Positions 31,128 through 62,326 of a DNA stretch of 64,000 nucleotides are shown here, one piece after another (within the stretch, counting starts at the first letter, position 1; every line of letters begins with the position of its first letter). Under the pieces are notes generated by a model. That model was not told the origin of the DNA. It was given only the letters and a program-made list of their open reading frames with translations, and did not search any database. The translations under genes and the position numbers were made by a program. Location: sequence record OR544955, one strand, 5' to 3'. The stretch comes from Escherichia phage vB_EcoP_EP32B.

Positions 31128-31601
31128 ATGTTATTATCAGGCGCAAAATATAAAGAAGAAAAACAAAAATTTTATGATGCACAGAATGGTAAGTGTCCTA
31201 TTTGCCACCGTGAATTAGACCCTGATGTTCAAGGTAACCATCTTGACCACGACCATGAATTAAACGGGCCAAAAGCCGGTAGAGTTCGTGGGTTACTATG
31301 TAACCTGTGCAATGCAGCAGAAGGTCAAATGAAGCATAAGTTCAACCGTTCTGGTCTTAAAGGTCAAAACGTTGACTACCTCGAATGGCTTGAAGCTCTT
31401 CTTGCTTATTTGAAACAAGATTATTCTGATAATAATATCCATCCTAATTTTGTTCCAGACAAAACTAAAGAGTTCTCAAGACTAGGTAAAGAGGAAATGA
31501 TGGCCGAGATGCTTCAAAGAGGATTTGAATATAATGAATCTGATACTAAAACACAATTAATAGCTTCATTCAAAAAGCAGCTTAGAAAGAGTTTAAAATG
31601 A
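31128..31601 (+). CDS. 49: endonuclease VII (Holliday junction resolvase) gp49
   Basis: MLLSGAKYKEEKQKFYDAQNGKCPICHRELDPDVQGNHLDHDHELNGP..., matches recalled T4 endo VII. Confidence 0.95.
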   Translation: MLLSGAKYKEEKQKFYDAQNGKCPICHRELDPDVQGNHLDHDHELNGPKAGRVRGLLCNLCNAAEGQMKHKFNRSGLKGQNVDYLEWLEALLAYLKQDYSDNNIHPNFVPDKTKEFSRLGKEEMMAEMLQRGFEYNESDTKTQLIASFKKQLRKSLK

Positions 31602-33415
31602 AAATTGAAAAAGAAATTGAAGGATTAATTCGTAAAACTAATAAAGATCTTTTAAACGAGAATGCTAATAAAGATTCTCGTGTTTTTCCAACTCAACGGG
31701 ACCTTATGGCTGGTATTGTGTCTAAGCACATTGCCAAAAATATGGTCCCGTCTTTTATTATGAAAGCGCATGAAAGTGGAATTATCCACATGCATGATAT
31801 TGATTATTCTCCTGCTCTTCCGTTTACTAATTGTTGTTTAGTCGATTTAAAGGGGATGCTTGAGAACGGATTTAAATTAGGCAATGCTCAAATTGAAACG
31901 CCTAAATCGATTGGTGTTGCTACTGCAATTATGGCACAAATTACTGCACAAGTTGCTTCACATCAGTATGGCGGAACTACATTTGCAAATGTCGATAAAG
32001 TTCTTTCTCCTTATGTTAAACGCACATACGCTAAACATGTTGAAGATGCGGAAAAATGGCAAATCGCTGATGCGTTGAATTATGCTCAATCCAAAACAGA
32101 AAAAGATGTCTATGACGCGTTCCAAGCTTATGAATATGAAGTAAATACTCTCTTTAGTTCAAATGGGCAAACGCCTTTTGTAACAATTACATTTGGTACG
32201 GGAACCGACTGGACTGAACGAATGATTCAGAAGGCAATTCTTAAAAACCGCATTAAAGGTCTTGGTCGTGATGGAATAACTCCTATTTTCCCTAAGCTTG
32301 TTATGTTTGTTGAAGAAGGTGTTAATCTTTATAAAGATGATCCGAACTATGATATTAAGCAGCTTGCTCTAGAGTGTGCAAGTAAAAGGATGTATCCTGA
32401 CATTATTTCGGTTAAGAATAATAAAGCTATTACCGGTTCTTCAATTCCAGTTTCTCCAATGGGTTGCCGTAGTTTCTTGGGCGTATGGAAAGATTCGACT
32501 GGTAATGAAATTCTTGATGGACGTAATAATCTCGGTGTTGTAACGCTGAATCTTCCTCGAATTGCGTTAGATTCTTATATTGGAACACAATTTAACGAAC
32601 AGAAATTTGTTGAATTATTCAATGAACGAATGGATTTGTGTTTTGAAGCATTGATGTGTAGAATTAGTTCCTTAAAAGGAGTTAAAGCGACTGTTGCTCC
32701 TATTCTTTACCAAGAAGGTGCATTCGGGGTTCGTCTTAAACCCGATGACGATATAATTGAGTTATTTAAAAACGGTAGAAGTTCAGTGTCCTTAGGATAC
32801 ATTGGTATTCACGAATTGAATATTCTTGTTGGTCGTGATATTGGACAAGAAATTTTAACTAAAATGAATGCTCTTCTTAAACAATGGACTGAAAGAACTG
32901 GGTTTGCTTTTAGCTTGTATTCTACACCTGCTGAAAACCTTTGTTATCGTTTCTGTAAACTAGACACAGAAAAATATGGAAGTGTAAAGGATGTTACTGA
33001 TAAAGGATGGTATACTAACAGTTTCCACGTTTCAGTAGAAGAAAATATTACTCCGTTTGAAAAGATTTCTCGTGAAGCACCATATCATTTCATTGCGACA
33101 GGTGGTCACATTTCTTATGTTGAACTTCCTGATATGAAAAACAACCTAAAAGGACTTGAGGCTGTATGGGATTATGCTGCACAGCATTTAGATTATTTTG
33201 GTGTTAATATGCCAGTAGATAAATGTTTTACATGTGGAAGTACCCATGAAATGACTCCGACTGAAAATGGATTTGTTTGTTCTATTTGTGGAGAAACTGA
33301 TCCTAAAAAGATGAACACAATAAGAAGAACATGCGGCTATTTGGGGAATCCGAACGAACGAGGATTTAATCTCGGCAAAAATAAAGAAATCATGCATAGG
33401 GTTAAACACCAATGA
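31598..33415 (+). CDS. nrdD: anaerobic ribonucleoside-triphosphate reductase NrdD
   Basis: 605 aa contiguous ORF; C-terminal Cys cluster CFTCGSTHE...CSICG and glycine-radical region. Confidence 0.95.
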   Translation: MKIEKEIEGLIRKTNKDLLNENANKDSRVFPTQRDLMAGIVSKHIAKNMVPSFIMKAHESGIIHMHDIDYSPALPFTNCCLVDLKGMLENGFKLGNAQIETPKSIGVATAIMAQITAQVASHQYGGTTFANVDKVLSPYVKRTYAKHVEDAEKWQIADALNYAQSKTEKDVYDAFQAYEYEVNTLFSSNGQTPFVTITFGTGTDWTERMIQKAILKNRIKGLGRDGITPIFPKLVMFVEEGVNLYKDDPNYDIKQLALECASKRMYPDIISVKNNKAITGSSIPVSPMGCRSFLGVWKDSTGNEILDGRNNLGVVTLNLPRIALDSYIGTQFNEQKFVELFNERMDLCFEALMCRISSLKGVKATVAPILYQEGAFGVRLKPDDDIIELFKNGRSSVSLGYIGIHELNILVGRDIGQEILTKMNALLKQWTERTGFAFSLYSTPAENLCYRFCKLDTEKYGSVKDVTDKGWYTNSFHVSVEENITPFEKISREAPYHFIATGGHISYVELPDMKNNLKGLEAVWDYAAQHLDYFGVNMPVDKCFTCGSTHEMTPTENGFVCSICGETDPKKMNTIRRTCGYLGNPNERGFNLGKNKEIMHRVKHQ

Positions 33416-33882
33416 ATTATGATAGATTTTATCCTTGCGATTTTGTGAATGGCCCTGGTTGCAGGGTCGTTCTTTTCGTTACGGGTTGTTTGCATAAATG
33501 CGAAGGGTGTTATAATAAATCAACATGGAATGCTAGAAATGGTACTCCATTCACTGGAGAGACACTAGAACAATTAATTGAATGTTTGAATAATGATTAT
33601 ATAGAAGGATTGACTATAACCGGAGGAGACCCTCTCTATCCTGATAACCGAGATGTTATTCATCGCATTGCTCAAACAGTAAAAAATCTTTATCCTAATA
33701 AAAGCATTTGGTTGTGGACAGGATACAAGTTTGAAGATATTAAACAACTAGAAATGCTTAAATATGTTGATGTTATTATTGATGGGAAGTATGAGAAAAA
33801 TCTTCCGACTAAAAAGCTGTGGCGAGGATCAGATAATCAGCGACTTTGGTCAAATACCGATGGGGTGTGGAAACATGATTAA
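33412..33882 (+). CDS. nrdG: anaerobic RNR activating enzyme NrdG (radical SAM)
   Basis: CLHKCEGCYN radical-SAM cysteine motif. Confidence 0.9.
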   Translation: MNYDRFYPCDFVNGPGCRVVLFVTGCLHKCEGCYNKSTWNARNGTPFTGETLEQLIECLNNDYIEGLTITGGDPLYPDNRDVIHRIAQTVKNLYPNKSIWLWTGYKFEDIKQLEMLKYVDVIIDGKYEKNLPTKKLWRGSDNQRLWSNTDGVWKHD

Positions 33883-45072: not shown

Positions 45073-47757
45073 ATGAAAGAATTTTACTTAACGGTTGAAC
45101 AGATTGGTGATTCAATTTTTGAACGTTACATCGATTCTAATGGCCGTGAACGTACTCGTGAAGTAGAATATAAACCATCACTGTTTGCTCATTGTCCAGA
45201 AAGTCAGGCTACGAAATATTTCGATATCTACGGTAAGCCGTGTACTCGTAAGTTGTTCGCTAATATGCGTGATGCCTCCCAATGGATTAAACGTATGGAA
45301 GATATCGGACTTGAAGCACTTGGCATGGACGATTTCAAATTGGCGTATTTGTCTGACACTTATAACTATGAAATCAAATACGACCATACAAAAATTCGTG
45401 TGGCTAACTTCGACATCGAAGTAACATCTCCGGACGGGTTCCCTGAGCCGTCACAAGCAAAACATCCGATTGATGCTATCACCCATTATGACTCAATTGA
45501 CGACAGGTTCTACGTATTTGATCTATTGAATTCTCCATATGGTAATGTAGAAGAATGGTCTATCGAAATTGCAGCTAAGCTTCAAGAACAAGGTGGTGAT
45601 GAAGTTCCATCCGAAATTATCGATAAAATCATTTATATGCCGTTCGATAACGAAAAAGAATTGTTGATGGAATATCTCAACTTCTGGCAACAGAAAACTC
45701 CTGTCATTTTGACTGGATGGAACGTTGAGTCATTTGATATTCCATATGTGTATAACCGAATCAAGAATATTTTTGGCGAATCTACTGCGAAACGTTTATC
45801 ACCACATCGTAAAACTCGTGTTAAAGTTATCGAAAACATGTATGGTTCTCGTGAAATCATTACATTGTTCGGTATCTCTGTTCTTGATTATATTGACCTT
45901 TACAAAAAATTCTCTTTTACCAATCAACCGTCGTATTCTCTGGATTACATTTCAGAATTTGAATTGAACGTTGGTAAACTGAAATACGACGGTCCTATTT
46001 CTAAACTTCGTTATAACATCATCGACGTATATCGTGTATTGCAAATTGATGCTAAACGCCAGTTCATTAACTTGAGTTTGGACATGGGTTATTATGCTAA
46101 GATACAGATTCAATCTGTGTTTAGCCCAATTAAAACATGGGATGCTATTATTTTTAATAGCCTTAAAGAACAAAACAAGGTGATTCCACAAGGTCGTTCG
46201 CATCCAGTTCAACCTTACCCGGGTGCTTTTGTTAAGGAACCTATTCCAAATCGATACAAATATGTAATGAGTTTCGACCTTACATCTCTGTATCCAAGTA
46301 TTATTCGCCAAGTGAATATTAGCCCGGAAACAATAGCAGGAACGTTTAAAGTAGCTCCACTGCATGATTATATTAACGCAATCGCTGAACGTCCTTCAGA
46401 TGTGTACAGTTGCTCTCCTAACGGCATGATGTATTATAAAGACCGTGACGGTGTTGTTCCAACTGAAATCACTAAGGTCTTTAATCAACGTAAAGAACAT
46501 AAAGGTTATATGCTTGCAGCTCAACGTAATGGTGAAATAATTAAAGAGGCATTGCATAATCCTAATCTTTCTGTTGACGAACCATTAGATGTTGATTATC
46601 GTTTCGACTTCAGCGATGAGATTAAAGAAAAGATTAAAAAGTTGTCTGCTAAATCTCTTAATGAAATGTTGTTTAGAGCTCAACGTACTGAAGTTGCAGG
46701 TATGACTGCACAGATTAACCGTAAATTGCTTATCAACTCACTTTATGGTGCACTTGGAAACGTTTGGTTCCGTTATTATGATTTGCGTAATGCTACTGCA
46801 ATCACAACATTCGGACAAATGGCTTTACAGTGGATTGAACGTAAAGTTAATGAATATCTGAATGAAGTTTGCGGTACAGAAGGTGAAGCTTTCGTTCTTT
46901 ATGGTGATACAGACTCTATTTACGTATCTGCTGATAAAATTATCGATAAGGTTGGTGAATCTAAATTCCGTGATACCAACCATTGGGTAGACTTCTTAGA
47001 TAAGTTCGCTCGTGAACGTATGGAACCTGCTATTGATAGAGGTTTCCGTGAAATGTGCGAATACATGAATAATAAGCAACATTTGATGTTCATGGACCGA
47101 GAAGCTATCGCTGGTCCTCCGCTCGGTTCTAAAGGTATTGGTGGATTTTGGACTGGTAAGAAACGTTATGCATTAAACGTGTGGGATATGGAAGGTACTC
47201 GTTACGCTGAGCCTAAACTCAAAATCATGGGTCTAGAGACTCAGAAATCTTCGACACCTAAAGCAGTACAGAAAGCTCTTAAAGAATGTATTCGTCGTAT
47301 GCTTCAAGAAGGTGAAGAATCATTACAAGAATATTTTAAAGAGTTTGAAAAAGAATTCCGTCAATTGAATTATATTAGCATCGCGTCGGTATCTTCTGCG
47401 AATAACATTGCTAAATATGATGTCGGTGGATTCCCTGGCCCCAAATGTCCGTTCCATATTCGTGGAATTCTGACATATAACCGAGCTATCAAAGGTAATA
47501 TCGATGCACCGCAAGTTGTAGAAGGTGAAAAAGTATATGTTCTGCCTTTACGTGAAGGAAACCCATTCGGTGATAAATGTATCGCATGGCCTTCTGGTAC
47601 GGAAATCACTGATTTAATCAAAGATGATGTACTTCATTGGATGGACTACACGGTTCTCCTTGAGAAGACATTTATTAAACCACTTGAAGGATTCACATCA
47701 GCAGCTAAACTCGATTACGAGAAGAAAGCATCTCTGTTCGATATGTTTGATTTTTGA
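45073..47757 (+). CDS. 43: DNA polymerase gp43 (family B)
   Basis: 894 aa; exonuclease motif FDIEV, polymerase motifs DxxSLYPS and YGDTDS. Confidence 0.95.
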   Translation: MKEFYLTVEQIGDSIFERYIDSNGRERTREVEYKPSLFAHCPESQATKYFDIYGKPCTRKLFANMRDASQWIKRMEDIGLEALGMDDFKLAYLSDTYNYEIKYDHTKIRVANFDIEVTSPDGFPEPSQAKHPIDAITHYDSIDDRFYVFDLLNSPYGNVEEWSIEIAAKLQEQGGDEVPSEIIDKIIYMPFDNEKELLMEYLNFWQQKTPVILTGWNVESFDIPYVYNRIKNIFGESTAKRLSPHRKTRVKVIENMYGSREIITLFGISVLDYIDLYKKFSFTNQPSYSLDYISEFELNVGKLKYDGPISKLRYNIIDVYRVLQIDAKRQFINLSLDMGYYAKIQIQSVFSPIKTWDAIIFNSLKEQNKVIPQGRSHPVQPYPGAFVKEPIPNRYKYVMSFDLTSLYPSIIRQVNISPETIAGTFKVAPLHDYINAIAERPSDVYSCSPNGMMYYKDRDGVVPTEITKVFNQRKEHKGYMLAAQRNGEIIKEALHNPNLSVDEPLDVDYRFDFSDEIKEKIKKLSAKSLNEMLFRAQRTEVAGMTAQINRKLLINSLYGALGNVWFRYYDLRNATAITTFGQMALQWIERKVNEYLNEVCGTEGEAFVLYGDTDSIYVSADKIIDKVGESKFRDTNHWVDFLDKFARERMEPAIDRGFREMCEYMNNKQHLMFMDREAIAGPPLGSKGIGGFWTGKKRYALNVWDMEGTRYAEPKLKIMGLETQKSSTPKAVQKALKECIRRMLQEGEESLQEYFKEFEKEFRQLNYISIASVSSANNIAKYDVGGFPGPKCPFHIRGILTYNRAIKGNIDAPQVVEGEKVYVLPLREGNPFGDKCIAWPSGTEITDLIKDDVLHWMDYTVLLEKTFIKPLEGFTSAAKLDYEKKASLFDMFDF

Positions 47758-47797
47758 TATAATGCCAAGGACGGCCAACTAATTAAATGAGAGAAAT

Positions 47798-48273
47798 ATG
47801 AAAACTACTCCTATTACTATCGCTATTGACGCAATCATAAAACAAGCTTCTTCTTTGGCCGCTATGGCCAAAGTAATTAGTCAAAACCCTGCTCGTTATA
47901 ATGCTATTCTAGAAACTCTTCGACGCCCTGGACTGAGTAATTATGAAAGTCGTGTAATTATTACAGGTGTTGGTAAGAACGCTAATATCGCAACTAAAGC
48001 TTCCGAGACATTTGCTTCACTCGGTATCCCGAGTATGTACTTGAACACTGGGCATTATTCTCACGGTGATGCAGGATTCATTGCGCCTAATGAGGCATCG
48101 CGGTAGAGGTTGATGAGAATTCTCTGGCTCCGACAATGTCTACTACATTGTTGTTAGCGCTTATCGATACGTTCGCTATCAACCTTTCGTCTGAACGTGG
48201 ATTTACCTCTAATGATTTCCTTAAGTTCCATCCAGGCGGTGCACTAGGTGCCATGTTACGAGGCGAACAATGA
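47798..48273 (+). pseudogene. SIS-domain sugar-phosphate isomerase (arabinose-5-phosphate isomerase KdsD/GutQ-like), disrupted
   Basis: N-terminal fragment RVIITGVGKNANIATKASETFASLGIPSMYLNTGHYSHGDAGFI stops at 48106; a different frame encodes the SIS C-terminus LAPTMSTTLLLALIDTFAINL...FHPGGALGAMLRG; central segment missing. Confidence 0.6.
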
Positions 48274-48413
48274 AAGCAATAACAATAGGACTTTTACTAT
48301 TGATGCTTGTCATGACTATCTACTGGAGCTTAACGGCTCCGGTAATGATTCCAACACTTGTAATTGGATGGATTATGATTGGACTACAAGCAAAGTATGA
48401 ATGCTTTAACTAG
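48270..48413 (+). CDS. small hydrophobic membrane peptide (47 aa)
   Basis: MKAITIGLLLLMLVMTIYWSLTAPVMIPTLVIGWIMIGL; ATGA overlap; below track cutoff. Confidence 0.35.
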   Translation: MKAITIGLLLLMLVMTIYWSLTAPVMIPTLVIGWIMIGLQAKYECFN

Positions 48414-48454
48414 AATAGTGTACAATACACCTACTTACCAATGAGGACTTCAAC

Positions 48455-50140
48455 ATGAAAAAAGCTGTTATTCTTGGTGCTGGACTGGCAACTCGTTTGT
48501 ATCCAATAACGCATCATATTCCAAAAGTTCTTGTGAACTATAAACAAGACACTATTCTGAGCAATTTGTATACAATTTATTCTGACCTTGGCGCAGATGA
48601 AATTATTGTAGTAGTTCATTCAAAATTTGCTGAAACTGTTCGAGCTTATTGTGAGCAAGAAGGGTTCAATGTGACTATTCGTACAGTTGATGAAGCGTAT
48701 GGTTCTGCTTATGCTCTTGCTAAATTACACAAAGATTTAGATGGCCATAACGTAATTGTTAACTGGTGTGATATTATTCCTGATTTTGGTTCATGGTCTT
48801 GGAATGTTAATGCAATCTATGTTAAGGGTGACGAATGTCGATATAATTTTGACGGTGAAAATATCACTAACGTAGGTTCAACAGGTGGTAATGTTGTAGG
48901 AATTTATCAGTTCAAAGACTGGGAATTCTACATGGGTTCTACTGATGAGGAAATTCACGAATACTGCAAAGGTCGTGATTTCGTAGAATTCCTTTACGGC
49001 AGCGCATTCAATAAATCAGAGCTTATGAATCTAATTGATTTAGGTGATATGCCTAAACTTGAAAAAGCTCATGAAGTTCGTGAACTTAATCGTAGTTTTA
49101 ATGCAGTTGAAATTGGTGAAGAAACTGTAACTAAATTCGCATTAACCGAACAAGGTCGAGCTCTTCAAAAAGATGAGATTTCATGGTATTTGAAAGTGAA
49201 ATCAGATTCAGTTCCTCAGTTAGTTTCGGTAAATGAAAATAATTTTGAAATGGAACGCATTAAAGGTAAGCCGGCATTTGAATATATTAAATCCAAATCA
49301 AGTCTTGCTCGTCCACAAATTGTTGATGCAATTTTAGATGCACTGAAATTCAGCACAGACACTTATTTTGTAAGTCCTGAAACTGTTCGTCGTGATTTCA
49401 CTAAAGAATTCTATACGAAAGTTATTGATCGTTGTGAAAGCATTCAGCCATTGATTGATTCATTTGGTAAAATCACACACGTGAACTACACTAAGATTGG
49501 ACGTCTGAAGCCAATGCTGAAGCAAGCTTTAGAACATCTTATTCGTTATCATACCCGTTCTCAGGGACAGTACTCTGTTATTCATGGTGACCCGAACTTC
49601 AGTAATACTATGATTACTGATAATGGCGAAGTCAAGTTTATCGACCCTCGTGGATATTTTGGCGAAACCAAGATTTACGGGCCAAAATTGTACGATGAAG
49701 CTAAAGTGCTTTATGCTGTTTCAGGTTATGATGAATTCAACGCTAATCCGACCTGGGGACAGTTTACTATTGACGAAACAACTTGTAATGTGACTATTAA
49801 CATCAATCCATTAGTTTACAAATATGGAAAGATGAGTTCGTTTAACGAGTATCATCATTTGGCTGTAGCAATTATCTGGATTGCATTAGGTGGTTATTTC
49901 AAGAATAATCCACTTAAAGCGGTAGCCGCATATTATAAAGGTATGGAACTTCTGACTAAGCAATTACGTAACATGGGCCGTGTACTTCAAGACGGCTCTA
50001 TTAGTTATGACGTAGCAGAACCTGTAACGGCTACTCTGATTACAAAAAATCCTGGTAAATGGGTACTAACTGATAAAGAAACTGGTGTTTCTTATCGTCC
50101 AATCGGTGGCGATATCACTCATCAATGGGAACGAATCTAA
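48455..50140 (+). CDS. bifunctional sugar-phosphate nucleotidyltransferase / sugar kinase
   Basis: N-terminus VILGAGLATRLYP (NTP-transferase G-x-G-x-R signature); C-terminal kinase motifs HGDPNFSNTMI and FIDPRGYFG (aminoglycoside/choline kinase-like fold); 561 aa. Confidence 0.75.
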   Translation: MKKAVILGAGLATRLYPITHHIPKVLVNYKQDTILSNLYTIYSDLGADEIIVVVHSKFAETVRAYCEQEGFNVTIRTVDEAYGSAYALAKLHKDLDGHNVIVNWCDIIPDFGSWSWNVNAIYVKGDECRYNFDGENITNVGSTGGNVVGIYQFKDWEFYMGSTDEEIHEYCKGRDFVEFLYGSAFNKSELMNLIDLGDMPKLEKAHEVRELNRSFNAVEIGEETVTKFALTEQGRALQKDEISWYLKVKSDSVPQLVSVNENNFEMERIKGKPAFEYIKSKSSLARPQIVDAILDALKFSTDTYFVSPETVRRDFTKEFYTKVIDRCESIQPLIDSFGKITHVNYTKIGRLKPMLKQALEHLIRYHTRSQGQYSVIHGDPNFSNTMITDNGEVKFIDPRGYFGETKIYGPKLYDEAKVLYAVSGYDEFNANPTWGQFTIDETTCNVTININPLVYKYGKMSSFNEYHHLAVAIIWIALGGYFKNNPLKAVAAYYKGMELLTKQLRNMGRVLQDGSISYDVAEPVTATLITKNPGKWVLTDKETGVSYRPIGGDITHQWERI

Positions 50141-50526
50141 TGCACCGTGTAGAAAACATGCTTAATCTTTGTTTTGATGTCGATGATTGTATAACAGAGT
50201 GGAATAACAATCGTGATTACGTGAACTTCAAACCAGACGTCGAAATGGTGACTGCTATTAATGCCCTGTATGATGCAGGGCATACCATAACGCTTTACAC
50301 TGCTCGTGGTATGAAGTCAGTAGGTCCTGGTCGTATAGCAATTGACATTCTCCCAAGTCTGATTCAGAACTTGGAAAACATTGGTTTGAAGTACCATAAT
50401 TTGCTAACACATAAACCAGTATATGATTGGATTATCGACGACAAAGCTATGCGTCCCGACGAATTCAAAGCTCTTATGAATAAAGGCGAATTCGAAACAT
50501 TTAAATCATATAAACCGAATCTATAA
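50140..50526 (+). CDS. HAD-superfamily phosphatase
   Basis: motif I FDVDDCIT, later DWIIDDK; start MHRVEN overlapping upstream stop. Confidence 0.6.
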   Translation: MHRVENMLNLCFDVDDCITEWNNNRDYVNFKPDVEMVTAINALYDAGHTITLYTARGMKSVGPGRIAIDILPSLIQNLENIGLKYHNLLTHKPVYDWIIDDKAMRPDEFKALMNKGEFETFKSYKPNL

Positions 50527-50582
50527 TAATTTAAGTAAGACCTGCAAAAACCATCGCATAAATTAACGTGAGATGCAAAAAA

Positions 50583-51743
50583 ATGAATACTTTTAAAATT
50601 GGAACGAATTTTGATTTAGCTCTTCTTGATAAAATCGTAGAGCTCAATAAAACTTATCCTAATAGCTTGATAAACGAAGTATACGGCTCTACAAGAGAAA
50701 TGGCTTTTGTAGCAGCCAGACCTGATTTTAGGCTTCCTGACGTTGACAAAAAGATGTTAGAAGATTACGTTAAACGTTGTAACGAATTAGGTATTTGCTT
50801 TAACTATACACTCAACACGATAAATCCTGGTTCAAAAAGAGAACTAGTCGAGTGGAAGAAGAAAGCTATTCAGGATTATGTTCAGTATCTTTGGTCAATA
50901 GGCGTATGGCGTATTACTATCGCTAACCCTGTTGTTATGGAAATTGTTCGTGAAGTCAATAAAGACATTGAGATTGAAGTTTCAACAATTCTACATGTCG
51001 ATGCTGTAACTCAAATAAAATACTTGCATGACCAATATAATATCAAAAAGGTCTGCTGTGGAATTCATAAGAACCGTTCAGTTTCTTTCCTGAAGCGTGC
51101 AGCAGAGTTTTGCAATAAGAACAATATAATATTTGAAGTTCTTGTAAATGAGTTCTGTTCTAATGCTGGTAAAGGGTATACAACACATTGTAGCTATCGT
51201 GACTCTTGCTATATTTTCCATAGTACTGATGTTACAGCCGATGATGCTAAATCCTTAAACGGGTATCCTATGCAGCACTGTATTAAAGCTCGTGATACAG
51301 ACCCATTTAACTGGTTGAGAACTCGTTTTGTTCGTCCTCAAGATTTGAAACTTTATAATGATATTGGTATCACTCAATTCAAAGTTTCAGGACGTACAGG
51401 TAGCACAGACTACATTTTGAAAGTTCTTGAAGCATACGCTTCTGAAAAGTTTGAAGGTAATTTGTTAGAACTGTGGAAGCCTTTAGAGACTATTTTCACT
51501 CTTGAAAATGAAACTGAGTTTTCACATACAGTAAATATTGAAACCTCTTTGTTAGATGGCTTTTTAGAAAAAAGGTGGTTCAGACATCCAGATTTTGATT
51601 GTGCTAATGAAATCTGTGGATCAACGTGTACATATTGTGAAAGATATTATAAACGTCAATTATCTAAAAACGGGTTAGCAGAAAACTCTATATCTATTAT
51701 TGATATAACTAACTCTGATGACGCTTTGAGGTACCCGGAATGA
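50583..51743 (+). CDS. Cys-rich enzyme-like protein of unknown function (386 aa)
   Basis: large ORF inside the modification cluster; cysteine clusters CCGIHKN, EFCSNAGKGYTTHCSYRDSC and CANEICGSTCTYCE. Confidence 0.6.
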   Translation: MNTFKIGTNFDLALLDKIVELNKTYPNSLINEVYGSTREMAFVAARPDFRLPDVDKKMLEDYVKRCNELGICFNYTLNTINPGSKRELVEWKKKAIQDYVQYLWSIGVWRITIANPVVMEIVREVNKDIEIEVSTILHVDAVTQIKYLHDQYNIKKVCCGIHKNRSVSFLKRAAEFCNKNNIIFEVLVNEFCSNAGKGYTTHCSYRDSCYIFHSTDVTADDAKSLNGYPMQHCIKARDTDPFNWLRTRFVRPQDLKLYNDIGITQFKVSGRTGSTDYILKVLEAYASEKFEGNLLELWKPLETIFTLENETEFSHTVNIETSLLDGFLEKRWFRHPDFDCANEICGSTCTYCERYYKRQLSKNGLAENSISIIDITNSDDALRYPE

Positions 51744-51979
51744 TTTCTAGAAAAACTTTTAATCACCAACTTAATGAAGAGATTTTGACTATTAAAATTA
51801 ACACTAACGAACAAATTCTTAAAAAGGCCCTTATGGGCCTGTTTGAAACTAAAGCGGCTAAAGTGATTAAAGAACCTGTTCAATTGGAATACTACGCTGA
51901 TGCATTTCTTCATAGTGTTCTTGGAAGTATCGATGCTGAAGCTTTACGTTATATCAACATTGTCAAGAAATTCAAATAA
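51740..51979 (+). CDS. hypothetical protein (79 aa)
   Basis: ATGA overlap. Confidence 0.5.
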   Translation: MISRKTFNHQLNEEILTIKINTNEQILKKALMGLFETKAAKVIKEPVQLEYYADAFLHSVLGSIDAEALRYINIVKKFK

Positions 51980-52003
51980 GCTTTACGAATTGAGTATATA
52001 ATA
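51980..52003 (+). promoter_or_regulatory. promoter upstream of the hydroxymethylase-like gene
   Basis: GCTTTAC then GTATATAAT at about 17 bp spacing. Confidence 0.4.
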
Positions 52004-52021
52004 AATTGTATTGAGGTAAAC

Positions 52022-52738
52022 ATGGGAAAACATAACACAATGAAATATATCAAAGCCGCAGATTTTCAAACCGCATTTAAAGCAGTCAATCGTGAAATTT
52101 TAGAAAACCCGGAATTCGTAACTGATTCTCGTATTGGACGTTGTAATGAAATTGGGTCTATGACAGTAGTTGTTGACACTCCATCATCATTCAAAATGAC
52201 CGACCCGCGTATTAACCGCATCTCTTATGAATATGCCGAAGACTTCTGGAAGTTTATGATTTCTGGTGGTACTGACGCAGAAGAAGCGTTTAAGGCATAT
52301 CCTAATGTCGCTAAATTTATTTCTAAACCAAAATCAGATGCTTTGCCTGCAAACTTCAACACTTTCTATGGTCCTCGCATTGCGGCCCAATTACCAGCTC
52401 TTCTAAAAGAACTTAAAGAGAAGCCTAACTCCAGAAGAGTTGTGTTCCAAATTCTAGAAAGTTCTGATCAGGCTTTGCTTGATTCGGACGAAACGCTTGA
52501 ATATCCATGTACTGACTCAGTGACTTATTATATTCGTGACGGTAAGCTTTATACCCACTGTCATATGCGTTCCCAGAACTGTGCTGTTGTTATGCAGTTG
52601 GATTTTTATCTCCAAGGAAAATTACTTCATTATATCGCTAACGAATGCGGTGTAGAAGTTGGTGATTATACTCATACCATGGTAAGTGCCCATGTGTTTG
52701 AACGTGATTTTGATTATGTTAAAGGATTCCTTGACTAA
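52022..52738 (+). CDS. thymidylate synthase-fold enzyme, divergent deoxypyrimidine nucleotide hydroxymethylase (gene 42 position)
   Basis: YPCTDSVTYYIRDGKLYTHCHMRSQNCAVVMQLDFYLQ aligns with the catalytic Cys and MRSxD region of TS / dCMP hydroxymethylase; rest of protein unlike T4 gp42 as recalled. Confidence 0.7.
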   Translation: MGKHNTMKYIKAADFQTAFKAVNREILENPEFVTDSRIGRCNEIGSMTVVVDTPSSFKMTDPRINRISYEYAEDFWKFMISGGTDAEEAFKAYPNVAKFISKPKSDALPANFNTFYGPRIAAQLPALLKELKEKPNSRRVVFQILESSDQALLDSDETLEYPCTDSVTYYIRDGKLYTHCHMRSQNCAVVMQLDFYLQGKLLHYIANECGVEVGDYTHTMVSAHVFERDFDYVKGFLD

Positions 52739-53637
52739 TGGCTATTTTCCGCGTACCAATCTTGAGTATGCGGTCTTATGAAACTGGTCAGTATGCTATC
52801 CTTAAGGATGGCAACTTCCAACTTCATTTGCACCGTGCTAATCCGGGTGATGTGATTACATATCCACGTAATGCATCTGATATTAAAGAATGCGAACGTC
52901 TTTTTCCGGAATTTAAGTTTGTTCCATTATGGTATAAAGATAACGCGTATAACACTCGTAAATATTTCTGGTCTGAAAATGAATTTGTGGTTGATTCATT
53001 AATTGCTTATTATGATTGTGATTTTCTAATCACAGATATCACTGGTTATGATGGCGCTTTTGACGTAGAATTCAATTTCAATATCACTGCAGACCCTAAT
53101 AAACCACGTTTTTATATTGATGAATTCTTAAAAACTGATATGTTGTCGGTTAATCGTTCACTTCAAACTACTGTGTTGAATGAACGTCAAAAAGAAGTGC
53201 TGGTTAACGCAGGTGCAGATGGTAATAAGATTATCGTAACGCAGAAAGTTATACGTCCTTCCGTCATGCAGCGTCTTGTAGGTGATTTGGCTCCTATTCA
53301 TCTAGATGGTATTTTTCATCCATTTCGAATTAGTGACCCATGCTATCGTTTTGAACAAGTGGTTGAATGCGCAATTCAATTAGGTCAACCGCTTTATATA
53401 ACTGATCCAAATAATAGTTTCGACAGAAATAAGTATCCTGAAGAAGCGCTGATTCGAATTTTTAATCCAACTAAAACTGAGTACTATCAAATTCTTAAAG
53501 GACGTCCGAAGATTCAATATTTCGAAAATCCTGAAGAAGTATTCCATCCAGGTCTTGGTGAGTTCATCTACTTTAATGCTTTAATTTCTTCACCGTATAA
53601 TATACCTAAATACGAAGATGTCGTAATCGAGGAATAA
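52738..53637 (+). CDS. hypothetical protein (299 aa), candidate DNA sugar transferase by position
   Basis: occupies the slot after the hydroxymethylase where T4 carries beta-glucosyltransferase; no recognised motif. Confidence 0.5.
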   Translation: MAIFRVPILSMRSYETGQYAILKDGNFQLHLHRANPGDVITYPRNASDIKECERLFPEFKFVPLWYKDNAYNTRKYFWSENEFVVDSLIAYYDCDFLITDITGYDGAFDVEFNFNITADPNKPRFYIDEFLKTDMLSVNRSLQTTVLNERQKEVLVNAGADGNKIIVTQKVIRPSVMQRLVGDLAPIHLDGIFHPFRISDPCYRFEQVVECAIQLGQPLYITDPNNSFDRNKYPEEALIRIFNPTKTEYYQILKGRPKIQYFENPEEVFHPGLGEFIYFNALISSPYNIPKYEDVVIEE

Positions 53638-53638
53638 A

Positions 53639-54187
53639 ATGGCTAAAATTATTTTAGTAGACGGGCCGGATAATGCTGGTAAAACAACTTTCATTAATGA
53701 CATAATGGAAATTAGTGAAAGATATGTAAAGATTGATTTCCCTAAACGAACAGTTGATGGGCGTTTCGATGTTAAGTCTCGAAATGAAGTCGGCTGTTTC
53801 GAAACGATGTTGAATTATTTGGACCCTACTAAGATTTATCTGTTAGACCGTGGATATATTAGTAACTGGGTTTATGGACGTATTCGACAAGATGTGGACT
53901 CGGTTCTTGACGTTTATGAACAGGATTATGTTCGTCTTTGCCAAAACCATGATGTGTTCACAATTATTTTAACACGTAACGAAATGACTGAAAGTTTTGA
54001 AGACGACCTTATTACTTTGTCTTCATTCGGTTTTAATACAGTCATTTCATATTTTGAAGAGTTTGCAATTCATAACAAAATCCAAACGTATCAATTACTT
54101 AATCATGATGGTGCTAATAAAGTTATAGGATTTAACGCAAGCGAACGTAATAATTTGATTACAGAAATCATCAAATGGGCTCGTTAA
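53639..54187 (+). CDS. P-loop nucleoside/nucleotide kinase-like protein
   Basis: Walker A GPDNAGKTT at N-terminus, LLDRGY region; 182 aa. Confidence 0.65.
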   Translation: MAKIILVDGPDNAGKTTFINDIMEISERYVKIDFPKRTVDGRFDVKSRNEVGCFETMLNYLDPTKIYLLDRGYISNWVYGRIRQDVDSVLDVYEQDYVRLCQNHDVFTIILTRNEMTESFEDDLITLSSFGFNTVISYFEEFAIHNKIQTYQLLNHDGANKVIGFNASERNNLITEIIKWAR

Positions 54188-54204
54188 GAGCCATTTAAAG
54201 TTTT

Positions 54205-54232
54205 AAATGCTGTATAACCCTTAGTATATAAT
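54205..54232 (+). promoter_or_regulatory. possible MotA-dependent middle promoter for uvsX
   Basis: AAATGCTGTA element about 20 bp upstream of GTATATAAT. Confidence 0.3.
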
Positions 54233-54285
54233 CATCTTATCTTTTAAACATGAGTAAAATATAATGATGCCTATGGAAAAATACA

Positions 54286-55458
54286 ATGTCTGATTTAAAA
54301 TCTCGTCTGATTAAAGCTTCTACTTCTAAAATGACTGCAGACTTGACTAAGTCTAAGCTGTTTAATAATCGTGATGAAGTCCCTACTCGTATTCCGATGT
54401 TGAATATTGCATTAGGTGGTGCACTGAATGCCGGGTTGCAATCAGGCTTAACTATTTTTGCTGCTCCTTCTAAACACTTTAAAACGTTGTTTGGACTAAC
54501 TATGGTTGCAGCGTATATGAAGAAATATAAAGATGCAATCTGTTTGTTTTATGACTCAGAATTCGGTGCTTCGGAATCTTATTTTCGTTCAATGGGTGTT
54601 GATTTAGACCGTGTAGTTCATACTCCGATTCAATCTGTCGAACAACTTAAGGTTGATATGACTAATCAGCTTGACGCGATTGAACGCGGTGATAAAGTTA
54701 TTATCTTTATCGATTCAATCGGTAATACTGCATCTAAGAAAGAAACCGAAGATGCGTTGAACGAGAAAGTTGTAGGTGATATGTCTCGTGCTAAGGCACT
54801 TAAATCTCTGTTCCGCATTGTGACTCCTTATCTGACTATTAAAGATATTCCGTGTGTTGCAATTAACCATACTGCAATGGAAATTGGCGGACTATATCCT
54901 AAAGAGATTATGGGCGGTGGTACAGGTATTCTTTATTCTGCCAACACGGTATTTTTTATCTCTAAACGTCAGGTTAAAGAAGGTACAGAATTGACCGGTT
55001 ATGACTTTACGTTGAAAGCGGAAAAATCTCGTACAGTTAAAGAGAAATCTACTTTCCCGATCACGGTTAATTTTGATGGCGGTATTGACCCATTCAGTGG
55101 CTTGTTAGAAATGGCAACTGAAATTGGATTTGTTGTTAAGCCTAAAGCCGGGTGGTATGCTCGTGAATTCCTTGACGAAGAAACAGGTGAAATGATTCGT
55201 GAAGAAAAATCATGGCGTGCTAAAGCTACTGATTGTGTAGAATTCTGGGGACCTTTGTTTAAACACAAACCTTTCCGAGATGCAATTGAAACTAAATATA
55301 AACTAGGTGCTATCTCTTCTATTAAAGAAGTTGATGACGCTGTTAACGACCTTATTAATTGCAAAGCAACAACTAAAGTTCCGGTTAAAACTTCTGATGC
55401 TCCGTCTGCAGCAGATATAGAAAACGACCTTGACGAAATGGAAGATTTCGATGAATAA
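54286..55458 (+). CDS. uvsX: RecA-like recombinase UvsX
   Basis: 390 aa; MSDLKSRLIKASTSKMTADLTKSKLF, RecA-fold ATPase with acidic C-terminus. Confidence 0.95.
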   Translation: MSDLKSRLIKASTSKMTADLTKSKLFNNRDEVPTRIPMLNIALGGALNAGLQSGLTIFAAPSKHFKTLFGLTMVAAYMKKYKDAICLFYDSEFGASESYFRSMGVDLDRVVHTPIQSVEQLKVDMTNQLDAIERGDKVIIFIDSIGNTASKKETEDALNEKVVGDMSRAKALKSLFRIVTPYLTIKDIPCVAINHTAMEIGGLYPKEIMGGGTGILYSANTVFFISKRQVKEGTELTGYDFTLKAEKSRTVKEKSTFPITVNFDGGIDPFSGLLEMATEIGFVVKPKAGWYAREFLDEETGEMIREEKSWRAKATDCVEFWGPLFKHKPFRDAIETKYKLGAISSIKEVDDAVNDLINCKATTKVPVKTSDAPSAADIENDLDEMEDFDE

Positions 55459-55792
55459 TCTCGATGATTTAAATCTAGAAATCGTTGATGAATCCCCTTC
55501 TTTGGAAGGGGAGGACATTCGCAAAGAACGAGTGTTTAATGAATCTCTTAAAATTGTCCGTTCAGCAATGGAAAATGTCATTCAAGAGATTCTGATTACA
55601 CTTGAAGACGGTTCCCATCATATAGTCTATATTACAAAACTAGACTGGGTTGATGGTAAAATCGTAATGGACTTTGCAGTTCTTGACCAGGACAGAAAAG
55701 CAGAACTTGCGCCACATGTTGAAAAATGTGTTACAATGCAAGTACAACAAGCTTTTAATGAACGGACCAAGAAAAAATTTAAATTCTTTTAA
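55451..55792 (+). CDS. 40: gp40-like protein (by synteny between uvsX and 41)
   Basis: start MNNLDDLN overlapping uvsX stop. Confidence 0.55.
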   Translation: MNNLDDLNLEIVDESPSLEGEDIRKERVFNESLKIVRSAMENVIQEILITLEDGSHHIVYITKLDWVDGKIVMDFAVLDQDRKAELAPHVEKCVTMQVQQAFNERTKKKFKFF

Positions 55793-61922: not shown

Positions 61923-62011
61923 AATATCTCCTTAGTTACCTATTATTTATTACGCTTTATAAAATTAATGTTAGAATTAACTCACTTATTACTGAATTGA
62001 AAGGAAAAATA

Positions 62012-62326
62012 ATGGCGCACTTTAATGAATGTTCACAACTTATTTCTGGTGTTGATAAAGCAGAAGAAGCTTATTTTAATGCTCTGATTCACGAAGATAA
62101 AGACCCACTTCAGGTAATGCTTGATATGCAGAAATCTTTACAGGTTCGTCTGGCAAATGACAAGCCTGAACATAACAAACATCCTGATGAATTGGCTACT
62201 GCCGGTGATGTTGTTGATTGGCTGCGTAATCAGAAAGATTATATTGATGATGAATTCCGTGAACTGTTGACTTCACTTGGTGGTATGATTATAAATACAC
62301 CTGTAATTAAACAACAAAGGAGTTAA
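62012..62326 (+). CDS. 56: dCTP pyrophosphatase gp56-like (MazG-type), short form
   Basis: MAHFNECSQLISGVDKAEEAYF...ATAGDVVDWLRNQKDYIDDEFRELLTSLG; 104 aa, shorter than T4 gp56 as recalled. Confidence 0.65.
   Translation: MAHFNECSQLISGVDKAEEAYFNALIHEDKDPLQVMLDMQKSLQVRLANDKPEHNKHPDELATAGDVVDWLRNQKDYIDDEFRELLTSLGGMIINTPVIKQQRS
62290..62297 (+). promoter_or_regulatory. late promoter TATAAATA upstream of soc
   Basis: exact TATAAATA about 32 bp before soc ATG, within the 3-prime end of gene 56. Confidence 0.5.

Follow-up and report, generated by a model that had tools for sequence, protein, structure and literature searches.

A predicted flavin-dependent 5-hydroxy-dCMP synthase with a thymidylate synthase fold in the gene 42 position of a Mosigvirus genome

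The open reading frame (ORF) at positions 52022–52738 of the DNA of Escherichia phage vB_EcoP_EP32B (sequence record OR544955) almost certainly encodes the Mosigvirus 5-hydroxy-dCMP synthase, in which flavin/O2 monooxygenase chemistry on a thymidylate synthase (TS) fold replaces folate chemistry. We base this assignment on complete identity to the experimentally assayed RB69 gp48, on a set of invariant active-site residues, and on the gene cluster in which the ORF is found. The window, by which we mean the whole 64-kb stretch of DNA that was analysed, is a segment of a Mosigvirus (RB69-like) genome. Its region 50000–55500 shares 98.6% DNA identity with E. coli O157 typing phage 3, and many other relatives are ~97–98% identical. 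The ORF is the only TS-fold gene within the window. It lies on the plus strand, starts with ATG, ends with TAA, and encodes 238 amino acids. A GAGG motif upstream could serve as its Shine-Dalgarno sequence (Table 1).

The 238-aa product shares 100% identity with RB69ORF048c (gp48) and 99% with AfhB of phage HY126. The two HY126 AfhB entries, PDB 9IQC and 9IQU, are its best two PDB matches, and three substitutions (T17S, E30Q, and E87K) separate it from the HY126 crystal construct. Both entries were released on 2025-07-16, under the titles "Monooxygenase dependent on riboflavin with dCMP and FAD" (9IQC) and "phage HY126 dCMP hydroxylase-AfhB with substrate dCMP" (9IQU). The Pfam TS model PF00303 matches the product at 56.9 bits against a cut-off of 24.3 bits, and the two motifs quoted in the initial annotation, PCT and HMRSQN, are both present, the former within YPCTD, which contains Cys163, and the latter at residues 181–186. 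In most database records, proteins of this family are named "thymidylate synthase", "dCMP hydroxymethylase", or "hypothetical".

The identical protein, RB69 gp48, has been studied by Lee et al. (Nucleic Acids Res 2026, PMC13326640; bioRxiv June 2025). Its production in E. coli gave rise to 5-hydroxy-deoxycytidine in DNA whether or not the phage dNMP kinase was present, and labelling with 18O2 shifted the product by +2 Da, which places the origin of the oxygen in O2 (PMC13326640). Purified gp48 is yellow, and FMN co-purifies with it and can be released (PMC13326640). A flavin-containing crystal structure and in vitro reconstitution have also been reported (He et al., Nat Chem Biol 2026, as cited in PMC13326640). 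The flavin species differs by source, being FMN in PMC13326640 and FAD or riboflavin in the PDB titles. In RB69 virion DNA, cytidine is completely replaced, and the base found is mono- and poly-arabinosylated 5-hydroxycytosine, joined through an ether oxygen, and not arabinosyl-hydroxymethylcytosine (PMC13326640). This work overturned the assignment made in 2018, when RB69 DNA was taken to contain arabinosyl-hydroxymethylcytosine (PMC6024577). The name "hydroxymethylase" used in the initial annotation is thus incorrect, as the identical RB69 protein makes 5-hydroxy-dCMP with O2 and flavin and without methylene-tetrahydrofolate (PMC13326640). Its suggestion that the modified base may be unusual is borne out by the arabinosyl-5-hydroxycytosine that accompanies the identical enzyme in RB69. 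Since the enzyme has been published (NAR 2026, Nat Chem Biol 2026, Cell Host Microbe 2025; PDB July 2025), our finding adds nothing new about the gene; gp48 is already characterised, crystal structures included.

Table 1. Features of the ORF at 52022–52738, of its gene cluster, and of the gp56 gene.
Feature	Coordinates	Strand	Evidence or remark
Arabinose-5-phosphate isomerase, RB69 gp55, broken	47798..48273	+	160-nt internal deletion
Bifunctional sugar-1-P nucleotidyltransferase/kinase, RB69 gp52:53, AfhE-like, intact 561 aa	48455..50140	+	NCBIfam nucleotidyltransferase; 99% to ORF053c and ORF052c; PMC13326640
HAD-type sugar phosphatase, RB69 gp51/AfhF-like	50125..50526	+	PHROG 1238, TIGR01689; PMC13326640
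U32-family protein, putative Fe-S protein, RB69 gp50	50568..51743	+	PF01136, E=7e-11; translation may actually begin at the ATG of codon 6
79-aa ORF, RB69 gp49	51740..51979	+	PHROG 8601; 95% to ORF049c; 4-nt overlap with the U32 stop
GAGG, putative Shine-Dalgarno-like motif	52013..52016	+	6 nt 5′ of the ATG; read off the sequence
Predicted dCMP 5-hydroxylase/5-hydroxy-dCMP synthase, RB69 gp48 = HY126 AfhB family, TS fold	52022..52738	+	
Glu160 codon (ThyA L143 position)	52499..52501	+	Glu in 121/121 homologues
Cys163 codon, catalytic nucleophile (ThyA C146/T4 gp42 C148)	52508..52510	+	Invariant in all alignments
Asn186 codon (ThyA D169N), diagnostic of 5-hydroxy-dCMP synthases	52577..52579	+	Asn in 121/121 homologues
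Asp194 codon (ThyA N177D/T4 gp42 D179), cytosine specificity	52601..52603	+	Invariant, 121/121
DNA arabinosyltransferase 1 candidate, RB69 gp46:47, intact 299-aa ORF	52738..53637	+	98–99% to ORF047c and ORF046c; PHROG 3891
Thymidylate-kinase-like nucleotide kinase, RB69 gp45	53639..54187	+	PHROG 761; 97.8% to ORF045c; PMC13326640 table 1
gp56 dCTPase gene, C-terminal half lost	61997..62326	+	Ends after residue 92; 437-nt deletion relative to RB69

Active-site residues and predicted fold

Residues were compared with T4 gp42 and E. coli ThyA in a three-way alignment and with further references in an 11-sequence alignment, while conservation within the family was read from an alignment of 121 homologues that are 54–100% identical (Table 1). 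The position equivalent to ThyA residue 169, which is Asn186 in the 238-aa product, is also Asn in gp216 of Rhizobium phage RL38J1; it is Asp in T4 gp42, Aeromonas gp42, Bacteroides phage BF486P3, Bacillus phage BCP78, and E. coli ThyA. The D169N exchange is a diagnostic signature of 5-hydroxy-dCMP synthases that has been validated on nine diverse homologues, L143D/E correlates with non-methyl products, and the role of N177 has likewise been described (PMC13326640). Several ThyA residues are retained, namely the Arg183-Ser184 dipeptide (R166-S167), the Arg138-Arg139 pair, and His224 (H207). Glu73, the equivalent of ThyA Glu58, is Glu in 91 and Ser in 14 of the 121 homologues and is replaced by other residues in the rest, a variability that fits the loss of folate chemistry. 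A segment of the form LPxNF(N/S)xFYGPRI is common to the gp48 family and RL38J1 gp216 and is absent from T4 gp42.

According to the initial annotation, neither substrate nor product could be inferred from sequence, and a comparison of the residues that discriminate cytosine from uracil was proposed. That comparison with ThyA and T4 gp42 points to Asp194, which occupies the position of gp42 Asp179 and marks cytosine (N177D), and Asn186 carries the D169N exchange published as diagnostic for 5-hydroxy-dCMP synthases; both substrate and product can therefore be predicted from these residues. The Asn186 signature also permits a clean re-annotation of misnamed records.

The Pfam TS model matches residues 122–235 only, which accounts for the impression in the initial annotation that the N-terminal half of the protein is unrelated to TS. 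Other comparisons extend over nearly the full length: PHROG 160 covers residues 2–237, TIGR03283 covers residues 9–233, and a sequence alignment with MilA, at 23% identity, covers residues 14–237. An AlphaFold2 model of the product, built with 44 homologues (pLDDT 87.5, pTM 0.86), superposes on 9IQC/9IQU with a TM score of 0.93, on MilA with 0.82 over ~240 columns, on E. coli ThyA with ~0.74, and on classical thymidylate synthases with 0.64–0.75. A Foldseek search with the model returned many TS structures at a probability of 1.00 (TM 0.64–0.82). The N-terminal half has thus diverged rather than arisen elsewhere, as judged from the PHROG, TIGR03283, and MilA alignments and the superposition of the model, and the protein is predicted to be a diverged TS fold over its whole length. 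A foreign N-terminal domain fused to a TS core was also considered and was ruled out by the full-length fold and profile matches. Residues ~78–120 are almost invariant in the family, yet they are modelled with low confidence (pLDDT 55–69). This combination of invariance and low pLDDT suggests a cofactor-gated loop in place of the folate-binding loop.

A reaction path could be proposed from the conserved residues. Cys163 would, like the nucleophile of thymidylate synthase, add to C6 of dCMP, and Asp194, like its counterpart Asp179 in T4 gp42, would read and protonate the N3/N4 face of the cytosine. Once activated, C5 would attack a flavin hydroperoxide instead of methylene-tetrahydrofolate, and beta-elimination of the cysteine would then free 5-hydroxy-dCMP and regenerate the enzyme. 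Asn186 may stand in for the folate-contacting Asp of thymidylate synthase, the flexible segment at residues ~78–120 may do the same for the folate-binding loop, and a reductant for the flavin would presumably be required. In the RB69/HY126 literature, a gp1-type dNMP kinase phosphorylates 5-hydroxy-dCMP, the modified base replaces cytosine at replication, and arabinose is subsequently joined to the 5-OH on DNA.

The gene 42 position and alternative readings

The locus of the ORF, between uvsX and gene 43, is the slot occupied by gene 42 in T4. Pairwise BLASTP gave 24.8% identity between the product and T4 gp42 over 218 aa (E=7e-13), whereas the T4 orthologues elsewhere in the window are 85% (gp41), 82% (gp40), 67% (UvsX), 64% (Imm), and 61% (gp43) identical. 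The initial annotation had correctly seen a divergent protein, out of keeping with its T4-like surroundings and no ordinary gp42 orthologue, although the 80–95% identity to T4 that it gave for the neighbours was an overstatement against the measured 61–85%. Searching 50,697 phage genomes with T4 gp42 (tblastn) recovered true orthologues at 55–98% identity in Tequatrovirus, Klebsiella, Citrobacter, and Aeromonas phages, beneath which there is a gap down to 30% or less. In RB69 and the other Mosigviruses, T4 gp42 matches one place per genome in this search, at 24.8%, and that place is the ORF at 52022–52738. A second, canonical gp42 located elsewhere in the genome was rejected on these grounds, as the ORF is the sole match to T4 gp42 in RB69. 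Given the shared synteny from uvsX to gene 43, the gp48-type gene in the gene 42 slot is probably a divergent or displaced homologue.

Its position, together with the Cys, the Asp at ThyA-177, and the acidic residue at ThyA-143 that it has in common with gp42, would also suit a fast-evolving T4 gp42 orthologue that acts as a folate-dependent dCMP hydroxymethylase. Such an activity was assumed from 2003 to 2018, the RB69 record carries the note "similar to dCMP hydroxymethylase", the 2018 paper made the same assumption (PMC6024577), and the name persists in many GenBank records. We nevertheless consider this reading very improbable. The identity to gp42 is 25%, whereas true gp42 orthologues of other genera reach 55–98%; the Asp at ThyA-169 has become Asn in 121/121 homologues, and the equivalent of ThyA Glu58 is not conserved. 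For the identical RB69 protein, moreover, hydroxymethylation has already been refuted by LC-MS and 18O2 labelling, which revealed a 5-hydroxy product (PMC13326640).

Two further readings take dUMP as the substrate, and we regard both as extremely unlikely. A true thymidylate synthase that converts dUMP to dTMP is what most database records imply; the Pfam and NCBIfam TS models do match, and many phage records carry the name "thymidylate synthase" or "thyA". The scores for all NCBIfam TS equivalogs, however, fall far under their cut-offs (e.g., 68.5 vs 174.6 bits), the residues at ThyA N177 and L143 are Asp and Glu, which select cytosine and non-methyl products, and the experimentally determined product is 5hodCMP (PMC13326640). 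A dUMP hydroxylase or hydroxymethylase of the SPO1 type, whose modified base would replace thymine, was raised as a possibility in the initial annotation, and dUMP hydroxymethylases do occur in the TS superfamily. Against it stand the invariant Asp194 at the pyrimidine-discriminating position, the dCMP in the PDB complex, and the fact that it is cytidine that is fully replaced in RB69 DNA (PMC13326640).

The surrounding gene cluster and the U32-family protein

Positions 47798–54187 reproduce the RB69 gp45–gp55 cluster, with its kinase, DNA glycosyltransferase, and NDP-sugar (UDP-arabinose) genes (Table 1). In RB69, gp46:47 is listed as a predicted glycosyltransferase (PMC13326640 table 1). A scan of 47700–54400 for sigma-70 promoters and terminators was uninformative, as 20 promoter-like sites were found vs 25.1 in shuffled sequences.

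The window lacks several stretches of sequence that are present in RB69 and in every close database relative, while the ORF at 52022–52738 is untouched. Besides the internal gap in the arabinose-5-phosphate isomerase gene and the loss from the gp56 dCTPase gene (Table 1), 27 nt are missing from gene 43, which correspond to the nine residues ESNHQRYIS, and 87 nt from gene 46. Gene 61.4, part of soc, and three small ORFs are also missing relative to RB69. These deletions may be assembly artefacts. As the isomerase and gp56 dCTPase genes look truncated, this exact genome may or may not yield fully modified DNA, unless the deletions are artefactual.

The U32-family, putative Fe-S protein (gp50) encoded two genes upstream of the ORF may be the only potentially new lead to come from this region. 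Its U32 domain scores 42.2 bits with Pfam against a cut-off of 22.4 bits, and NCBIfam UbiU matches weakly. Plain MAFFT alignment with UbiU, UbiV, RlhA, and TrhP was too noisy for the Cys ligands, which were therefore placed by profile–profile comparison. In hhalign against a profile of E. coli TrhP/RlhA/UbiU/UbiV, gp50 matched with a probability of 96%, and the CX6C pair fell on the invariant Cys208/Cys214; the other two canonical U32 Cys ligands did not align in gp50. The protein has ten invariant Cys residues, including a C-terminal CX4CX3CX2C motif from C345 to C357. A structural model of gp50 has a U32-type barrel, for which Foldseek returned mostly generic TIM barrels and one specific match, PDB 5D88 (the U32 protein Mk0906). 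Against the PDB sequences, phmmer found no significant match to gp50.

The U32 enzymes whose function is known hydroxylate independently of O2: RlhA forms ho5C in 23S rRNA, TrhP forms ho5U in tRNA, and UbiU/V take part in making ubiquinone anaerobically, with the oxygen supplied by prephenate (PMC5727448, PMC6599085, PMC6747719, PMC10990095). Lee et al. pointed out that the known pathways of pyrimidine hydroxylation (RlhA; TrhP/TrhO) do not employ homologues of the TS-fold enzyme, and described gp50 only as a "sugar or heterocycle reductase", without noting it as a U32 protein like RlhA or TrhP (PMC13326640). The U32 gene is not discussed in the Thanatos paper either.

Homologues of gp50 in phages comprise 221 records, which belong to Straboviridae of Enterobacterales/Shewanella-type hosts, none of them with less than 80% identity. 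Acinetobacter and Rhizobium phages are missing among the matches listed and their host genera, although both groups have the TS-fold enzyme (65 Acinetobacter and 22 Rhizobium phage records). Acinetobacter phage DLP3 makes arabinosyl-5hoC without a U32 gene (PMC13326640), and the U32 protein is thus dispensable for the sugar. More distant homologues of gp50, at 50–55% identity, can be found in metagenomic sequences. All eight lie in replication or dNMP-metabolism modules, with neighbours that include dCMP deaminase, thymidylate kinase, dNK, NT5C, dUTPase, UDG, and PolIII alpha, and none of the eight has a TS homologue within 7–8 kb. One of these contexts contains DNA glycosyltransferase-like genes and a UDP-galactopyranose mutase gene. 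The TS-fold hydroxylase requires O2, yet the hosts of RB69-like phages are facultative anaerobes, and the window also encodes nrdD/nrdG, the anaerobic ribonucleotide reductase.

It is conceivable, though we would place it on the doubtful side, that gp50, together with the translationally coupled gp49, hydroxylates C5 of cytosine in nucleotides or DNA independently of O2, by analogy with RlhA, TrhP, and UbiU/V, and so provides a second, anaerobic route to 5-hydroxycytosine. E. coli phage JS10 (Dhakavirus) argues against such a role, as it has the TS-fold enzyme and lacks the U32/gp49 module. If true, this role would explain how gut phages achieve an O2-derived base modification under anoxia.

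Comparison with known systems

The closest counterparts of the predicted enzyme are RB69 gp48, HY126 AfhB, and Acinetobacter phage DLP3 gp80 (PDB 9IQC, 9IR2, and 9IQU), which have the same length, the same gene neighbourhood, and the same Cys163/Glu160/Asn186/Asp194 signature. Rhizobium phage RL38J1 gp216, a 5hodCMP synthase from the Pootjesviridae, belongs to a distant clade. At 30% identity it has D169N, N177D, L143E, and the LPSNF..FYGPRI segment in common with the gp48 family, and its formation of 5hodC has been demonstrated experimentally (PMC13326640). The 5-OH in RL38J1, however, carries galactose/glucose and not arabinose.

Outside the family, the nearest solved structure is that of MilA, the CMP 5-hydroxymethylase of mildiomycin biosynthesis (PDB 5JNH/5B6D). 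MilA likewise takes a cytosine nucleotide as its substrate, but it prefers the ribonucleotide, is folate-dependent, and forms a hydroxymethyl product. With E. coli ThyA, the archetype of PF00303, the gp48-type enzyme has in common the fold, the Cys nucleophile, the Arg-Ser phosphate/pyrimidine motif, and the Arg138-Arg139 pair. The two nevertheless share only 18–22% identity, with BLAST aligning just the C-terminal 115 residues, and the gp48-type enzyme differs by N177D, L143E, and D169N and by not carrying out a reductive methylation. The gp48-type enzyme illustrates that a TS scaffold can give up folate-dependent one-carbon transfer and take on a hydroxylation that depends on flavin and O2.

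T4 gp42 and the gp48-type enzyme both act on dCMP with a TS fold, and they have in common the catalytic Cys, an Asp at ThyA-177, an acidic residue at ThyA-143, and the chromosomal slot. The same logic applies to both systems, in that dCMP is modified ahead of replication and the modified base is glycosylated later on DNA. The two enzymes part in their chemistry: T4 gp42 keeps Asp at ThyA-169, has no LPxNFNTFYGPRI segment as found in the gp48 family, and adds CH2OH by means of methylene-tetrahydrofolate and water, whereas the gp48-type enzyme has Asn at ThyA-169, binds a flavin, and inserts an oxygen atom from O2.

Folate-site region and naming of the hydroxylase family

Across hundreds of phage records, members of the 5-hydroxy-dCMP (5hodCMP) synthase family are deposited under differing names, including 'thymidylate synthase', 'thyA', 'dCMP hydroxymethylase', 'deoxycytidylate 5-hydroxymethyltransferase' and 'hypothetical protein'. 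Among the listed public records matching the window protein, none carries the experimentally established function as its annotation. Residue 73, the equivalent of Glu58 in E. coli thymidylate synthase (ThyA), is not conserved in this family, with Glu present in 91 of the 121 aligned members. A segment at residues 102-119 (KPKSDxLPANFNTFYGPRI) is almost invariant and falls within a region modelled with low confidence (residues 78-120). The combination of a variable residue 73 and this near-invariant segment is consistent with a flavin site in place of the folate site.

The U32 module and oxygen

A gene for a U32-family protein, a putative Fe-S protein, and a 79-aa ORF translationally coupled to it lie close upstream of the dCMP hydroxylase gene. 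The U32 protein (391 aa) contains 10 Cys residues that are invariant across the family, and a CX4CX3CX2C motif at its C-terminal end. Those U32 enzymes whose function has been established are hydroxylases that do not need O2; RlhA, for example, produces ho5C (PMC5727448, PMC6599085, PMC6747719, PMC10990095). In the phage collection, the two-gene module was found only in phages of facultative anaerobes, with no Acinetobacter or Rhizobium phage among the matching records and host genera listed; Dhakavirus JS10 is also without it. The window carries nrdD and nrdG, which encode an anaerobic ribonucleotide reductase, and the phage is therefore equipped for O2-free replication, yet its cytosine hydroxylase requires O2.

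Metagenomic contigs (L008, L009/L010, L011, L012, L013, L019, L020, L021) also carry homologues of this protein, 50-55% identical to the phage version, and these lie within replication or deoxynucleotide-metabolism modules. A PolIII-alpha gene is often immediately downstream, and an unannotated ORF of ~300-340 aa is often immediately upstream. Three loci have a radical-SAM/SPASM gene close by. At L013 the U32 homologue is accompanied by glycosyltransferase-like genes, dUTPase/DCD and UDP-galactopyranose mutase. No thymidylate synthase homologue was found within 7-8 kb in any of these loci.

Deletions and intact reading frames relative to RB69

Several stretches present in RB69 and in every close relative in the databases are missing from the window, and megablast against close relatives needed two to three pieces every time. 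These deletions are either real defects or artefacts of assembly or editing.

Features of the window and their positions
Position	Feature	Remark
30239	Deletion	
31090	Deletion	
31598-33879	nrdD, nrdG	98.5-98.7% identity to RB69
34225	Deletion	
41515	Deletion, gene 46	
~46012	Deletion, gene 43 (DNA polymerase)	9 residues lost, in-frame
48093	Deletion, arabinose-5-P isomerase gene	160 nt lost internally, frameshifting
48455-50140	Bifunctional nucleotidyltransferase/kinase	561 aa
50568-51979	U32 gene and 79-aa ORF	
52022-52738	dCMP hydroxylase	
52738-53637	Glycosyltransferase	299 aa
58260	Deletion, 61.4	
~62287	Deletion, gene 56 (gp56 dCTPase)	C-terminal half lost
~62458	Deletion, soc	

The glycosyltransferase and the nucleotidyltransferase/kinase are each encoded by one intact ORF in the window, where the RB69 reference record has two (046c/047c and 052c/053c, respectively). 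Published statements attribute both RB69 splits to sequencing errors, and the intact ORFs of the window agree with that reading.
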